DNA of 64,000 nucleotides. Source: an uncultured Bacteroidales bacterium. Lineage in GTDB: Bacteria; Bacteroidota; Bacteroidia; Bacteroidales; VadinHA17. The position numbers and the translations under genes were made by a program. Of this stretch, positions 3,323-36,001 are shown in pieces. The stretch covers positions 631,792 through 695,791 of the forward strand of contig CAVXEU010000003.1 of the NCBI GenBank assembly GCA_963760915.1. Direction: 5' to 3'. Position 1 is the stretch's first letter. The number at the start of each line of letters is the position of its first letter. The notes below the pieces were generated by a model. That model saw only the letters and a program-made list of their open reading frames with translations. It was not told where the DNA came from and made no database searches.

Positions 3323-3904
3323 TTATGAGAGAATGTGTTCAAGGAATATTTTTAGTCCGATCGCTATTAAAAGCAGACCACCTATAATTTCAACCTTGTT
3401 TCCCAGCCTGGAACCTGCGGATTTACCAATCCTGATTGCAGTCATCGAGGCTAAAAAAGTGATAACCCCTATAAGGATTCCGGCTTCCCAGATCTTTACA
3501 TCCAGCAGTGCAAAACTTATTCCGACAGCGAATGCATCAATACTTGTTCCCAGTGCTATGGTCACCAGTATTATCATACTGCTGAAATTTTTTGCTTTTT
3601 CTTCACTTGTTTTTCTCAGACCTTCCATGATCATTTTAATTCCCAGAAAGGCCATTAACCCCAACGCGATCCAATGATCAGCAGCTTTTAACTCGCCTGA
3701 TATTATTGAACCAAGAAAATACCCTGCAATGGTCAGTCCTCCCTGAAAAATGGAAAGCACTACTGCTACCCTGGTTGCCTGTCCGAAGAGGATTCTGTTC
3801 CTTACCACACCCAGCGACAGAGAAACAGCGAAAGTGTCAAATGACAGACCCAGTGCCACAACCAGAATTGTAAAAAAATCCATGATCGATAATAAGATGC
3901 GCAA
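3323..3904 (-). CDS. mntP: manganese efflux pump MntP
   Basis: 193-aa polytopic membrane protein with duplicated DxFAV motifs (SFDTFAVSLS and SIDAFAVGIS), characteristic of MntP/DUF204. Confidence 0.85.
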   Translation of the reverse strand: MRILLSIMDFFTILVVALGLSFDTFAVSLSLGVVRNRILFGQATRVAVVLSIFQGGLTIAGYFLGSIISGELKAADHWIALGLMAFLGIKMIMEGLRKTSEEKAKNFSSMIILVTIALGTSIDAFAVGISFALLDVKIWEAGILIGVITFLASMTAIRIGKSAGSRLGNKVEIIGGLLLIAIGLKIFLEHILS

Positions 3905-4765: not shown

Positions 4766-5245
4766 TCATTCGGCTACATCAGGAAGTCCCTGTGTACCTG
4801 AATCGAGCACAAATTTCCAGTTTCCGTCAGGTTGTTTTTGCCAGATTGTTACATAGGTGCCTCTTGTGGTCATTCCTGTCATTTTGTCCGTATTAGTATG
4901 AATTCCATAGGTATATCCGAGGTCTCCGCTCTCAGATATTCGTTCGTACAGAGGTTCCCACGACAGAATGAATGTTGTATCCGTTTTGCCTGAATACCTT
5001 TTTTCGAGAGTCTCTTTCCCTTTTTCAGGGAACGCATTATCGCGCAATATGACACCTTCTTCTGCAATGTAATATAAAAAGGCTTTGAACATCCCTTCTT
5101 TTACCGACATTGCAGAGAAATCGCGATCTGTCTGTAAAAGAATTCCGGTAGCAGGAATCTTGGTATTATTTGTACAACTTAATATCAGAATAAAACATAT
5201 TATGAAAACAAAAAGCATTATATTGAACCCGTTCTTTTTTTTCAT
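4766..5245 (-). CDS. lipoprotein, SnoaL/DUF4440-like (NTF2 fold) protein
   Basis: Signal peptide with a lipobox-like LILSC. The C-terminal WQKQPDGNWKFVLD pattern is typical of DUF4440/NTF2-like proteins. Confidence 0.55.
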   Translation of the reverse strand: MKKKNGFNIMLFVFIICFILILSCTNNTKIPATGILLQTDRDFSAMSVKEGMFKAFLYYIAEEGVILRDNAFPEKGKETLEKRYSGKTDTTFILSWEPLYERISESGDLGYTYGIHTNTDKMTGMTTRGTYVTIWQKQPDGNWKFVLDSGTQGLPDVAE

Positions 5246-31610: not shown

Positions 31611-32429
31611 ATGAAAAAGCAATTAACTCTGATTCTGATACTTTCACTGTTTTCAGGTATTTTAAGTAACTGTAAGAAGGATAAGGGAGAGCCTCCGGTC
31701 CTGCCTCCACAGGAATCGATGTCTATAGATTTCAGCAATTTCGAGAGCCAGAAAAAATCAGCAGACCTGATCCCTGGCCAGAAAGGGACTGAGAACAGTA
31801 ACTGGGAATTTGCTGCAACAGTAGCAGGCTTGTGGAGGGTGATAATAAATACCACACTTATTGTACCAGTTGTATCATTTAAGCTGGCGGTTAACCAGAC
31901 TCCTGTGTATGTTACGGGTAAAACATGGCAGTGGAGCTACGATGCAACGGTTGCATCCGTTAATTATAAGGCAAGACTTACTGGAGAAATAAGAACCAGT
32001 GATGTTGCGTGGAAGATGTACATAACAAAGGAAGGAACAGGAGGTTTCTCAGATTTTCTATGGTTTGAGGGTACTTCAAAGCTCGATGGTACGGGAGGAC
32101 AATGGATTCTGAATCAAAGTCCGCAGGCACCTGCTTCAATTCTGCAGATTGACTGGACAAAATCGGGCACTTCTGTCGGTAAAATTGTTTATACATACAT
32201 TAAAAACGGAGATACATTCAATACCAGTTATATTGAATACGGACTTATGGCCAATACATTAGATGTTTATTATTATACTATTCATTATTTCAATGGTGCG
32301 AAGTTCTCAGATGTCAATGTTGAATGGAATTCCACTACTTATAACGGCAGGGTTAAGAGTCAGGATTACCTTGGAGATAATGCCTGGTATTGCTGGGATT
32401 CAAATAAGGTCAATGTTTTGTGTCAATAA
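31611..32429 (+). CDS. hypothetical lipoprotein
   Basis: 272 aa with a signal peptide and lipobox (GILSNC). It is beta-rich, with Trp/Tyr/Thr-rich composition, and I recognise no family. Confidence 0.6.
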   Translation: MKKQLTLILILSLFSGILSNCKKDKGEPPVLPPQESMSIDFSNFESQKKSADLIPGQKGTENSNWEFAATVAGLWRVIINTTLIVPVVSFKLAVNQTPVYVTGKTWQWSYDATVASVNYKARLTGEIRTSDVAWKMYITKEGTGGFSDFLWFEGTSKLDGTGGQWILNQSPQAPASILQIDWTKSGTSVGKIVYTYIKNGDTFNTSYIEYGLMANTLDVYYYTIHYFNGAKFSDVNVEWNSTTYNGRVKSQDYLGDNAWYCWDSNKVNVLCQ

Positions 32430-32555
32430 TATTTCCATTTGAGTTTCCACAATCTTCGTGCGAATTACTAAATTTTAGTGCATCTTATTCATGTCTCATT
32501 AACCGGCTGTGAATGTGGCCCGGAAGACAGCGCGCTTGAATTCTGATATTTTTAT
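32407..32555 (+). repeat. 149-bp direct repeat, left copy (contains the last 23 nt of CDS 31611-32429)
   Basis: Aligned base by base with 33480-33628. There are 2 mismatches, at 32467 and 32534. Confidence 0.95.
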
Positions 32556-32679
32556 CCTGTTTTACGCACTTTTTAAAAAAGCTTCTGAGACTCTCAAGTA
32601 ATGGGGAATGATTTTTTTATTTGGGTGTTGCATCATATATCTATGATGTATTTTATTTGAATTTTTAATTTACATCACC

Positions 32680-33159
32680 ATGGCAAACACTTATGCTCAA
32701 TGTTATTTCCATATGGTCTTTTAAGTAAAAAATCGCGATGCGCTGATAAAAAGAGAATGGAAAGATGAATTGGAAATGTATGTCACAGGAATTGTCCAAA
32801 ACCATAGGCATAAAATGCTGGCAATAGGAACAATGCCTGACCATGTTCATATTTTGATAGGTTATAATGTAAATCAGCTGATACCAGATATTATTGAAGA
32901 AATTAAAACATCATCTAATAAATTCATTAAAGGAAAAAAGTTATCAAAATTTAAGTTTGAATGGCAGAAAGGTTATGGAGCTTTCACACATTCTCATTCC
33001 CAAATAGACCTTGTGGCAAAATATATCTTGTCTCAGGAAGAGCATCATGAAAAAAAGCCATTCAGTGAAGAGTATTTTGAAATCCTGGAGAAGAATAACG
33101 TGCAATTTAAAGATGAATATGTTTTTGAATTCTTTGATGACGTTCATGGTTGGGATTAA
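32680..33159 (+). pseudogene. IS200/RAYT-type HUH Y1 transposase-like gene interrupted by in-frame TAA (codon 15)
   Basis: The ATG at 32680 gives MANTYAQCYFHMVF*VKNRDALIKREWKDELEMYVTG..., in the same frame as track ORF 32770-33159. It has the HUH motif HVHILIG and a C-terminal catalytic-Tyr helix AKYILSQEEHH. The stop codon is at 32722-32724. Confidence 0.75.
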
Positions 33160-33160
33160 A

Positions 33161-33375
33161 TATCGCGGTGCTCTGCACCTTCTGTAATGTCTTTCAAATG
33201 CATTTCTACAAATATTATGCGGCTCTGCCGCTTAATATTAGCCCGGAATGTGCAGCGCATCAACTATCAATAGATGAATAGAAGCATTGAATAGCCAAAG
33301 AAGGTGCGGAGCACCATAATATTTGTAGATAAATTATTATTATAGAAGACAAAGGTGCATCGCACCGGAATATAA
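33161..33375. repeat. cluster of four REP-like hairpins (GGTGC-N3-GCACC type) in 2 forward + 2 reverse nested arrangement
   Basis: The hairpins are GGTGCtctGCACC at 33167-33179, GCGGCtctGCCGC at 33219-33231, GGTGCggaGCACC at 33303-33315 and GGTGCatcGCACC at 33354-33366. The flanks ctacaaatattatg (33205-33218) and cataatatttgtag (33316-33329) are reverse complements. Confidence 0.7.
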
Positions 33376-33479
33376 TTATTAAATAATATATTTTTAATTC
33401 ATTAGTAAACAGTTATTTAGAAATAACAAATAATAACCATTCAGAATTAAAATTCGGGTGTTGCAACGCTGAAAACAGG

Positions 33480-33628
33480 AGGTCAATGTTTTGTGTCAAT
33501 AATATTTCCATTTGAGTTTCCACAATCTTCGTGCGAATTTCTAAATTTTAGTGCATCTTATTCATGTCTCATTAACCGGCTGTGAATGTGGCCCGGAAGA
33601 CAGCGCACTTGAATTCTGATATTTTTAT
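33480..33628 (+). repeat. 149-bp direct repeat, right copy
   Basis: 147 of 149 bases are identical to 32407-32555. The offset is exactly 1073 bp. Confidence 0.95.
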
Positions 33629-33696: not shown

Positions 33697-34332
33697 ATGG
33701 AAAATAACCAGAACTATTTTGATGACCTGAAAACAATCAAAAAAATAATGGAGGAGTCTTCCCGGTTCCTTTCCCTCAGCGGATTGTCGGGTCTGTTTGC
33801 GGGAATAATTGCCCTTATTGGAGGTTCCGTTGCATATATTGTTTTCCTGAAAAGCAATTTGCTTGAGAATAACGAATTTTTCAGAAGCCTCTCAATGGGT
33901 GAGATATCTGCTCTGAAACTTAAGCTTATTTCTGTTTCGATACTGGTACTGGTTCTGGCGATAGGCATTTCACTGTATTTTTCATACAGGAAATCGCTCC
34001 GTTATGGCATACCTTTATGGACACCTGTATCTAAGCGATTGCTTTCCAGTCTCCTTGTTCCATTAATTTCCGGCGGAATATTCATCATTATTCTCTATTC
34101 TGCAACTCAATGGCAACTAATCATTCCTGCCATGCTTATATTTTATGGGCTTGCCCTGGTAAGTGCCTGTAAATTTACATTCAATGAACTATTTTACCTT
34201 GGTTTGTCAGAGATAACTACAGGATTGGCCTCTGCAATATTTCCCGAATATGGAATCTTTTTCTGGTGTTTTGGATTTGGATTTCTTCATATTGGTTATG
34301 GTCTGTTCATGTATAGAAAATACGAAGGATGA
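33697..34332 (+). CDS. hypothetical polytopic membrane protein
   Basis: About 211 aa from the internal Met (MENNQNYF...), with 5-6 TM helices. It overlaps the downstream wHTH gene by 4 nt. Confidence 0.6.
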   Translation: MENNQNYFDDLKTIKKIMEESSRFLSLSGLSGLFAGIIALIGGSVAYIVFLKSNLLENNEFFRSLSMGEISALKLKLISVSILVLVLAIGISLYFSYRKSLRYGIPLWTPVSKRLLSSLLVPLISGGIFIIILYSATQWQLIIPAMLIFYGLALVSACKFTFNELFYLGLSEITTGLASAIFPEYGIFFWCFGFGFLHIGYGLFMYRKYEG

Positions 34333-34625
34333 AAATCTCAATATCAGGTATAAATAAACTATTCGAAAACAGGGTAAGGCTCGGCATTATGTCAGTCCTG
34401 ATGGTAAATGACTTCTATGATTTCAATAGCCTCAAGGATGCTCTTGAGGTTACAGACGGGAATCTGGCCAGTCATTTAAAAGCCCTTGAAGATAATGATT
34501 TAATTAAAGTCAACAAGCAATTTATAGGAAGGAAGCCCAATACGAGTTATTCAGCTACCGACACAGGGAAAGAATCCTTCAGACTTCATTTAAAAGCTCT
34601 TGAAGAAATTATAAAAAACCAATAA
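34329..34625 (+). CDS. winged-helix transcriptional regulator (HTH_34/PadR-ArsR-like small wHTH)
   Basis: 98 aa. The pattern LFENRVRLGIMSVL...TDGNLASHLKALEDNDLIKV...GRKPNTSYSATDTGKE is typical of this wHTH family. Confidence 0.75.
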   Translation: MKISISGINKLFENRVRLGIMSVLMVNDFYDFNSLKDALEVTDGNLASHLKALEDNDLIKVNKQFIGRKPNTSYSATDTGKESFRLHLKALEEIIKNQ

Positions 34626-34640
34626 TTTTTTTATTAATTC

Positions 34641-34657
34641 ACTTTGTTATTCAAAGT
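34641..34657. promoter_or_regulatory. palindromic box ACTTTG-N5-CAAAGT (candidate operator, second copy)
   Basis: It lies 24 nt upstream of the creD-like ATG at 34682. It shares ACTTTGT..TTCAAAGTACTTTT with the site at 33662. Confidence 0.4.
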
Positions 34658-34681
34658 ACTTTTTAACTAATATATATAACT

Positions 34682-36001
34682 ATGAAAATTGAAATCAATG
34701 ACAACAAAAAATGGCAGCAGTCATTAACATTAAAGATGCTGCTTCTTGGCTTTCTTGGAGTATTTCTGCTAATACCGCTGGAAATGATAAAAATTATCAT
34801 AAAAGAGAGGCAGAAAAATGCAGAAAATGTCAAGAAAGAAATTGCTTTTCAGTGGGCCGGTCAGCAAAACATAACTGGTCCGGTGCTGAACATTCCCGCA
34901 TGGGTATATCCTTCATTAAAGGTGGCAGAACCTTACAAAACCATCTTCCATATAATGCCTGAAACGTTAAGAATTACCGGTGATATTAAGTCGGAAACGA
35001 GACACAGGAGTATCTATAAGGCAGTGGTTTACACAGCGGACCTGGGGCTTTCCGGAGATTTTATCATACCTGAACTTAACGCCGGTGAGAAAAGTGAAAT
35101 ACTCTGGAACGAGGCATATTATTCTATCGGAATTAGTGATAACCGGGGATTGAAAGGAGTTGTGAATTTAGTGTCGGATTCGACAAGCCTTGAGGCAATA
35201 CCCGGCCTTAAGGACACCGATCTTTTTAATTCGGGTATCACTTTTCTGTTTAAAGATGCCGGAAAAAACAGGAAGATCCATTATTCGCTCGCCCTTCAGT
35301 TATCGGGTTCAGAAAGTTTGACCTTAACCCCCGTGGGCAAAACGACTGAAGTTAATCTCCGATCTGCATGGGCTTCTCCCGGCTTCTCAGGTAATTTTCT
35401 GCCGGTTAAAAGGGAGATTGATAATTCAGGCTTCAGGGCTGAATGGCTGGTGACAAATCTAAACCGCAACTTTCCTCAGGTCTGGAACGGAAGTTCTTAT
35501 AGTCCGGCCAGCGATTCATTCGGTGTAGATTTTATTCTGACTGTAGATCATTATCAGAAATCGCTGAGAAGTGCAAAATATGGAATACTGTTTATCGCCC
35601 TTACGTTTCTTGCCTTAATATTTGCAGAGTTGACTATACGTGAAAAAATTCATATTTTCCATTATCTTCTTGTATCTCTTGGTCTGGTCCTTTTCTTTTC
35701 TCTCTTAAATGCCTTAAGTGAACACACAGGATTTAATCTTGCATACTTAATCTCGTCTCTTGCCACAATTACACTTATTACATTTTTCCTTCGAATGCTG
35801 ATAAATAAAAGCCAGACAGTTCTGCTGATATCAGGAATGCTTGTTTTTTTATACTCTTTTATATTCGTATTACTGACACTTAACGACTATGCTTATCTGG
35901 CAGGAAATATAGGACTTTTTGTATTGCTGGCAGTGACAATGCGACTTTCGGTCAAGTTGAATTTATTTGACAGGAAACCGGATATTGAGGTGCGGGAATG
36001 A
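34682..36001 (+). CDS. creD: cell envelope integrity protein CreD family
   Basis: 439 aa. It has an N-terminal TM helix, a large periplasmic domain and a C-terminal cluster of 5 TM helices. The N-terminus KMLLLGFLGVFLLIPLEMIKIIIKERQ is typical of CreD. Confidence 0.75.
   Translation: MKIEINDNKKWQQSLTLKMLLLGFLGVFLLIPLEMIKIIIKERQKNAENVKKEIAFQWAGQQNITGPVLNIPAWVYPSLKVAEPYKTIFHIMPETLRITGDIKSETRHRSIYKAVVYTADLGLSGDFIIPELNAGEKSEILWNEAYYSIGISDNRGLKGVVNLVSDSTSLEAIPGLKDTDLFNSGITFLFKDAGKNRKIHYSLALQLSGSESLTLTPVGKTTEVNLRSAWASPGFSGNFLPVKREIDNSGFRAEWLVTNLNRNFPQVWNGSSYSPASDSFGVDFILTVDHYQKSLRSAKYGILFIALTFLALIFAELTIREKIHIFHYLLVSLGLVLFFSLLNALSEHTGFNLAYLISSLATITLITFFLRMLINKSQTVLLISGMLVFLYSFIFVLLTLNDYAYLAGNIGLFVLLAVTMRLSVKLNLFDRKPDIEVRE

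Follow-up and report, generated by a model that had tools for sequence, protein, structure and literature searches.

A Y1 (HUH) gene of a Bacteroidales bacterium as passenger of a probable non-autonomous IS1634-type cassette with long target-site duplications

Introduction

A stretch of 64,000 nucleotides from an uncultured Bacteroidales bacterium (contig CAVXEU010000003.1, positions 631,792 to 695,791; this whole stretch is called the window here) contains a single gene for a Y1 (HUH) protein of the type known from IS200-like insertion sequences (IS). The gene lies in a 924-bp insert that ends in 8-bp terminal inverted repeats and is flanked by direct repeats of 149 bp. Elements of the IS200/IS605 type end in asymmetric hairpins; they lack inverted repeats and do not duplicate their target. 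The locus raises the question of what kind of mobile element the insert is and how its long flanking repeats were made. The initial annotation, derived from the letters alone, had correctly stated that IS200/IS605-type transposition cannot explain the inverted repeats together with the 149-bp duplication, and had offered three other routes: att-type integration of a circle, capture of a rolling-circle (HUH) product longer than unit length, and a local duplication. Comparison with related genomes and metagenomes leads us to a different answer. The insert is very probably a mobile insertion cassette (MIC), a non-autonomous derivative of Bacteroidales IS1634-family elements that is most likely moved in trans by the DDE transposase of this family, and the flanking repeats are the long target duplication of this clade.

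Results

Structure of the locus

The architecture proposed for the locus, an insertion with defined ends and a detached gene 3´ end in the right repeat, was borne out in all its parts (Table 1). The direct repeats are identical in 147 of 149 positions, with mismatches at 32467 and 32534, and the left one reaches into the open reading frame (ORF) of a lipoprotein-like gene, of which it includes the last 23 nt with the stop codon. The insert starts with CCTGTTTT and ends with AAAACAGG; the motif GGGTGTTGCA is located subterminally at 32623 and again at 33456, the hairpin CATCATA-TATC-TATGATG close to the left end has a predicted DNA folding energy of -4.7 kcal/mol, and the palindrome GTTGCAAC is found at 33460-33467. 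That the insert contains the only Y1 gene of the window was likewise confirmed (Pfam Y1_Tnp, E=1.8e-24), and Y1_Tnp is the sole family represented among the ORFs of the insert. Not mentioned before were an in-frame TAA at codon 15 of this gene and hairpins resembling repetitive extragenic palindromic (REP) sequences 3´ of it, with the pattern GGTGC-NNN-GCACC at 33167, 33303 and 33354 and the sequence GCGGCTCTGCCGC at 33219. Rfam and tRNA scans of the window gave no matches.

Table 1. Features of the locus in window coordinates
Feature	Position	Strand	Remarks
Lipoprotein-like gene	31611..32429	+	272 aa, no Pfam family; stays intact, 3´ end within the duplicated target
Target-site duplication, left copy	32407..32555		149 bp; starts AG, ends AT
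Non-autonomous IS1634-family cassette (probable MIC)	32556..33479	+	924 bp; Y1 gene and REP-like hairpins inside
IS-derived left end	32556..32650	+	core of left inverted repeat (IRL) CCTGTTTT (8 bp); GGGTGTTGCA 32623-32632; hairpin 32631-32648; ATG 32646-32648, a remnant of the start codon of the DDE transposase gene that was lost
Y1 (HUH) IS200-like pseudogene, subclass 1.2	32680..33159	+	motifs HVH and Y---Q--HH; TAA at 32722-32724
REP-like hairpin units of the Y1 module	33160..33366		GGTGCTCTGCACC 33167-33179; GCGGCTCTGCCGC 33219-33231; GGTGCGGAGCACC 33303-33315; GGTGCATCGCACC 33354-33366
IS-derived right end (right inverted repeat, IRR)	33456..33479	+	GGGTGTTGCAACGCTGAAAACAGG
Target-site duplication, right copy	33480..33628		149 bp; holds the detached copy of the lipoprotein gene 3´ end
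Downstream membrane-protein gene	33697..34332	+	original upstream region kept

The ends of the insert are those of an IS1634-family element

A metagenome collection was scanned for the right-end motif, and 120 loci were returned. The termini CCTGTTTT[A/C]CGCAC ... GGGTGTTGCAACGCTGAAAACAGG were found to bound not only Y1 cassettes but also a uniform element of about 1.64 kb (1636-1643 bp). Its single ORF of 507 aa scores 350 bits against the NCBIfam model NF033559 'IS1634 family transposase' (cutoff 100) and also matches Pfam DDE_Tnp_1. The DDE gene is present in 36 of the 120 loci and the Y1 gene in 11, and no locus has both. Over its first 100 nt the window cassette is 83% identical to the left end of one autonomous copy (L140), and this match takes in GGGTGTTGCA, the hairpin, which is also kept in a second IS copy (L185), and the transposase gene's first codons. 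At the other end, cassette and IS have the right-end 24-mer in common, and in autonomous copies the stop codon TAG of the transposase gene overlaps its first base (TAGGGTG...). The clade is large, with at least 8000 homologues of the transposase at E<=1e-50.

The same ends are also present on smaller elements. Deletion derivatives measure 540-820 bp, and elements of 384-385 bp (L092 and L181) have a perfect 22-bp duplication. In MITEs (miniature inverted-repeat transposable elements) of about 90 bp (87-92 bp; L093, L107, L152 and L175) a fusion within the direct motif GGGTGTTGCA has joined the left and right ends. L152 contains in addition a 760-bp element with the same ends (36-795), in which a 92-bp MITE is followed by a cargo and a second right end; this cargo encodes a 23S rRNA-intervening-sequence protein (PF05635, E=9.5e-23). 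The contig itself is repetitive, with a period of 925 bp.

The cassette is a mobile unit with locus-specific duplications

With the Y1 protein as query, a scan of one genome per species yielded 79 loci, mostly from metagenome-assembled genomes (MAGs) of Bacteroidales. A search for further copies of the insert had been suggested by the initial annotation, and identical ends were indeed found in at least 14 further Bacteroidales loci with unrelated flanks. BLAST similarity to the window begins and stops within a few bases of 32556 and 33479 in these loci, and the printed junctions place the ends exactly there. The metagenome loci contain further copies with the same boundaries and again unrelated flanks; conserved at the ends are CCTGTTTTACGCAC... 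on the left and ...GGGTGTTGCAACGCTGAAAACAGG on the right. Several genomes, for instance CAVZVF01, JAPLED01 and JBBSAP01, have two to four cassette copies at different sites.

Nearly all complete cassette copies have direct repeats of their own, about 20-310 bp long and specific for the locus, and most of these abut both ends. Besides the window with its 149 bp, repeats of 308 bp (L013), 132 bp (L003), at least 113 bp (L009), 92 bp (L010), about 91 bp (L058), 88 bp (L016) and 83 bp (L004) were found in genomes, and of 81 bp (L148), 120 bp (L142) and 166 bp (L173) in metagenome loci. In four loci (L006, L051, L056 and L062) the repeats are more diverged, or extra sequence lies between the repeat and one end. 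Chance does not produce such a pattern: among 400 random 924-bp pseudo-elements placed in related loci the best abutting in-register repeat scored 3, compared with 143 for the window, and control alignments of flanks across loci never scored above 24.5. The recurrence at independent insertions and both controls thus show that the repeats are target-site duplications made at insertion.

The cassettes vary in length from 918 to 1416 bp by tandem expansion of the REP-like units, such as five extra 82-bp units in L010 (4630-5052) and 53-bp units in L073 (4434-4625). The arrangement in one locus, L002, differs from a simple duplication: directly upstream of the full cassette lie a solo right-end fragment of 42 bp and the sequence 'aaagaggcca' (3824-3876), and these 10 bp are found again after the right end of the cassette (4802-4812).

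Long duplications are also made by IS copies without a Y1 gene

IS1634-family transposases on long contigs were looked up to examine the flanks of Y1-free copies. Perfect duplications of 552/552 bp (L201), 119/119 bp (L202) and 104/104 bp (L203) were found in one long-contig assembly, and of 173/173 bp on another scaffold (L207). They abut the IS ends in L201, L202 and L207, and lie within 2 nt of the left end in L203. On short-read metagenome contigs a long duplication was present in only two of about 12 IS copies (L156 with 106 bp and L083 with 74 bp), in both of which the repeat copies differ by about one base. Three contigs with the same insertion as L207 (L208-L210) terminate at 141 or 173 nt, within the duplication, showing that such repeats break short-read assemblies. 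In L201 (2410-4047) the IS lies in a relA/spoT-type gene; one flank has a full-length gene, the opposite flank a 134-aa HD_4 fragment. A long duplication can thus preserve its target gene.

The flanks follow a symmetric rule. In 52 unique left flanks, position -2 is a pyrimidine in 85% and position -1 is T in 83%; in 123 unique right flanks, position +1 is A in 85% and position +2 a purine in 85%. Such a symmetric preference is what one would expect for one active site acting on both strands. The repeat of the window starts with A-purine, as the rule demands, and ends with the preferred T, which is however not preceded by the preferred pyrimidine.

The empty site

A search for an empty site had also been proposed, and such a site was found on the Logan contig L001 (2137 bp) from a near-identical strain without the 1073-bp unit. 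The lipoprotein gene, encoding a protein identical to that of the window, is followed here by one 149-bp copy and then directly by the sequence from 33629 onward, and the flanks are 100% identical to those of the window. At the two single-nucleotide polymorphisms (SNPs) the left copy of the window has A and G, the right copy T and A, and the single copy of L001 A and A. This pattern fits an ancestral target with one later mutation in each repeat copy; a deletion through recombination of repeat with repeat, in which the crossover lies between the SNPs, would account for it just as well. L001 may be a recent revertant, and we lean this way without being able to decide, since fresh duplications are perfect while about 2 kb of flanking sequence are free of differences. 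In the nearest lipoprotein homologue outside the source strain (L222, 73% identical) there is no Y1 gene at the site, and the SNPs cannot be polarised with it because the spacer is unalignable at this identity. Exact-protein look-ups for further alleles of the site, made with the downstream gene (two starts), the truncated Y1 ORF and the HTH gene, returned no records.

Recombination between the repeats does take place, as tandem arrays show. In L142 (4542-6277), three copies of the 120-bp target repeat alternate with elements of 694 bp and 922 bp, and an array of the same order (repeat-element-repeat-element-repeat) is found in L083 (1-1852, reverse strand). Both arrays are likely to stem from unequal crossing-over between long duplications.

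The Y1 gene and its hairpins

The Y1 gene and the REP-like hairpins are passengers of the cassette. The Y1 protein reaches 65 bits with the NCBIfam IS200 model (cutoff 55) and stays below the RAYT model NF047646 with 32 bits (cutoff 80). Codon 15, a stop codon in the window, is TCA (Ser) in L002, L003 and L004; L004 has an internal stop of its own at codon 40. Almost all other relatives encode intact proteins of 154-160 aa (about 50 of 55 are intact), and for the Y1 genes in cassettes the median dN/dS is about 0.10 (78 pairs). The intact state and the purifying selection in other cassettes show that the protein has some function, though the window copy is dead.

In relatives without the IS ends (L018, L021-L025 and L036) the Y1 gene is flanked on both sides by AAGGTGCAGCGCACCGTAATATTTGTAG-type units; in the cassettes REP-like units are located downstream of the Y1 gene only, and elsewhere in the window no REP-like hairpins were found. 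Such two-sided arrays are present in L018 (3651-3875 and 4623-4848), L023 (3797-3993 and 4655-4852), L025 and L036, and the AAGGTGCAGCGCACCGTAATATTTGTAG unit is inverted just after the Y1 stop codon, a layout resembling that of REPtrons. This layout was reported absent for subclass 1.2 in a 2018 survey, which describes the subclass as a Bacteroidetes/Cyanobacteria group with low copy number and without IS properties (Quentin et al. 2018, PMC6006769). The direct repeats around the Y1 genes of L018, L022, L023, L024, L025 and L036 were considered as target duplications and rejected: what flanks these genes is either a REP-like array or a repeat of about 110 bp that resembles a MITE and is shared between genomes. 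The latter has the boundaries AGGGGATTTAAAAT...ATTTTAAATCCCCT and lies on both sides of the Y1 module in two Prolixibacteraceae-type genomes (L022 3798-3912 and 4579-4689; L024 142-239 and 920-1017).

Discussion

Taken from an IS1634-family element, the cassette would have kept about 95 bp of the left end and 24 bp of the right end, while the DDE transposase gene would have been replaced by a passenger module, the IS200-like Y1 gene with its REP-like hairpins. A DDE transposase from an autonomous copy elsewhere would recognise both ends and insert the cassette, attacking the two target strands tens to hundreds of base pairs apart, each beside an A-purine; this would be seen as the order pyrimidine-T / element / A-purine. 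Repair of the long single-stranded gaps would then duplicate the target. In the window, the duplicated segment would be made up of the last 23 nt of the lipoprotein gene and 126 nt of spacer, so that both neighbouring genes stay intact; since the region upstream of the downstream gene is restored by the duplication, that gene has it in the original form. Later on, the cassette may be lost or tandemly amplified via homologous recombination between the long repeats.

Several known systems resemble the cassette in part. IS1634-family elements have ends of the form C-----YT and typically make duplications of 5-6 bp, yet IS1634 from Mycoplasma mycoides and IS1549 from Mycobacterium smegmatis have long, variable direct repeats of 8-514 bp, for which no mechanistic model was given (De Palmenaer et al., PMC2266710). 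The cassette ends CCTGTTTT and AAAACAGG fit C-----YT, siblings with these ends encode an IS1634-family DDE transposase, and the flanking repeats of the cassettes and IS reported here are long and variable as well (22-552 bp). The window element differs from IS1634 and IS1549 in having no transposase gene and in its Bacteroidales host. MICs and MITEs are IS derivatives that can be activated by a cognate transposase (PMC3129680). With MICs the window element has in common the IS ends, the absence of a cognate transposase gene, a passenger gene, the target duplication and the occurrence of several copies at different sites of a genome, and its kin with the same ends include the MITEs of about 90 bp, the 384-bp elements and the cassette with the 23S rRNA-intervening-sequence protein. 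What sets it apart is that its passenger is itself a transposase-family gene (Y1 HUH), accompanied by REP-like hairpins. The literature searched contained no earlier description of an IS1634-type element with a Y1 gene as its cargo.

The passenger has the Y1_Tnp domain (PF01797) with the motifs HUH and Y---Q--HH, and in its occurrence in Bacteroidota at low copy number it agrees with TnpA-Y1 subclass 1.2; the ends and the duplication, however, belong to another IS family than IS200/IS605. Like the genes of REPtrons and RAYTs, the window gene adjoins short GC-rich hairpin repeats, but it misses the RAYT threshold and the window has no dispersed REPs. A Y1 gene bracketed by terminal inverted repeats is also known from TIRtrons (TIRYT); their published inverted repeats, GGGGWSAS, are unrelated, and neither a target duplication nor a DDE partner is mentioned (Di Nocera et al. 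2013).

Some observations weigh against the insert being an IS1634-type cassette moved in trans. We infer the mobilisation in trans, the chemistry of staggered cuts and gap repair and the role of the Y1 protein, and transposition was not seen directly. No IS1634-family transposase gene was found in the window or within 4 kb of any fetched cassette, thus the trans-acting source in the genome of the window is unseen. Moreover, about ten autonomous IS copies from short-read assemblies and four to five of the MITEs of about 90 bp have no flanking repeat, whereas almost all cassettes have one. Among these IS copies, L104, L128, L133, L140/L191, L178 and L185 show the correct pyrimidine-T/A-purine junctions without a repeat within 2 kb. 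In our view the repeat-less copies come from assemblies in which a multi-copy IS was joined chimerically or collapsed, and from recombination between IS copies; this explains the discrepancy only in part: L140 and L191 have the same flanks in two samples and no repeat, so at least this case, which stays unexplained, is not a chimera. Target deletion by a stagger of opposite polarity, or IS-by-IS recombination, is possible for the repeat-less copies. Finally, most characterised members of the family make duplications of only 5-6 bp (PMC2266710), among them ISPfe2 with 6 bp (PMC3281130); thus the long duplication is a property of this clade and not of the whole family.

It might be argued that the Y1 protein is more than a passenger and acts as a partner in the life cycle of the cassette, which would then be a composite element with two transposases. 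The protein might for example nick the internal REP-like hairpins and so give rise to a replicative or single-stranded copy that is integrated by the DDE transposase, or it might help to process very long gapped intermediates. The data behind this idea are the selection that keeps Y1 intact inside cassettes with IS1634-type signatures, and we regard it as unlikely; if true, it would give the enigmatic subclass 1.2 a function.

Even less probable is the integration of a 1073-bp circle, consisting of the cassette and one 149-bp copy, into the empty site by homologous (Campbell-type) recombination. This is the circle idea of the initial annotation with no dedicated integrase; the att-type version finds no integrase or att system, and the repeat sequence differs at every locus. 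A single crossover between the SNPs would explain the alleles with no new mutation, and the long repeats make loop-out circles plausible, and tandem arrays are found in L142 and L083. Yet the circle leaves the first arrival of the cassette at any locus unexplained, each locus having its own repeat sequence, and requires a donor in which this site is filled already, and fresh IS insertions show perfect duplications, as transposition predicts. Circle formation or re-integration via recombination between the repeats is possible as a secondary process on top of transposition.

Very unlikely, in our judgement, is that the Y1 (HUH) protein moves the cassette or is needed for the long duplications, for example by nicking both strands at the ends and joining the 5´ ends to staggered nicks in the target. 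The gene is mostly intact and under purifying selection, the flanking repeats are more consistent in cassettes than in short-read IS copies, and the symmetric junctions are formally compatible with either polarity of a staggered cut. On the other hand, the ends coincide exactly with the termini of a DDE-encoding IS, perfect duplications of 104-552 bp flank IS copies without a Y1 gene, and the Y1-associated hairpins are internal and not at the cassette ends. Y1 genes outside the IS ends have REP arrays and no target duplication, duplications are not known from IS200/IS605 elements (bioRxiv 10.1101/2022.12.15.520654), and the Y1 gene of the window is a pseudogene. A search of the literature for HUH/IS200 elements with long duplications gave only Replitron-1, whose variable duplications are short. 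An HUH-chemistry model, in which 5´-phosphotyrosine joining and staggered nicks with 3´ overhangs yield symmetric junctions, was drawn up and dropped because the ends are found on DDE-encoding IS and on Y1-free copies with perfect long duplications. For the same reason, the rolling-circle overshoot of the initial annotation is not needed: Y1-free elements that encode the DDE transposase and have the same ends carry long abutting repeats. Of the local duplication that had been suggested, only the version that is generated by transposition as target-site duplication stands.

It is hardly credible that the repeats are artefacts of assembly, or stem from a tandem duplication which has nothing to do with transposition and brackets the insert by chance: the window does come from an assembly in the style of uncultured genomes, and repeats longer than the k-mer do confuse short-read assemblers (as in L208-L210), but the two copies differ at two positions and abut conserved element ends to the base, and the same architecture occurs at more than 20 independent loci in long- and short-read assemblies of different projects.

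With an IS1634-type cassette, an IS200-like gene between inverted repeats and a 149-bp duplication can be explained without new chemistry, since the mobility would come from the IS1634-type ends. Many genes annotated as 'IS200/IS605 transposase' or 'RayT' in Bacteroidales lie in this cassette, and to take them for autonomous IS200 elements would be a mistake. For the cause of long, variable duplications there has been no mechanistic model since 2008 (PMC2266710), and an abundant IS1634-family clade with duplications of up to 552 bp and a symmetric target rule is a natural data set that could help to test one. Such duplications spare both neighbouring genes, and insertions that carry them can be reversed or tandemly amplified by ordinary homologous recombination. 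For a transposase-family gene it is unusual to be the passenger of another transposon and to be kept there by purifying selection; this may inform on the role of Y1 subclass 1.2.

The 24-nt right-end sequence was also encountered as the 5´ coding part of a small ORF (ATGGCGAAGAAGGGTGTTGCAACGCTGAAAACAGG; MAKKGVATLKTG) in L114, L119, L130, L149, L177 and L183, which in L114, L119, L177 and L183 is located directly 3´ of rpmB (L28). The pattern scan probably picked these sequences up by chance, without their being IS ends. Next to the cassette, the window differs from L222 in gene content, a difference that adjoins the cassette and is separate from it: in L222 the lipoprotein gene is directly followed by lspA, whereas in the window three extra genes (33697-36001), for a membrane protein, an HTH_34 regulator and CreD, lie between the lipoprotein gene and lspA (36084).

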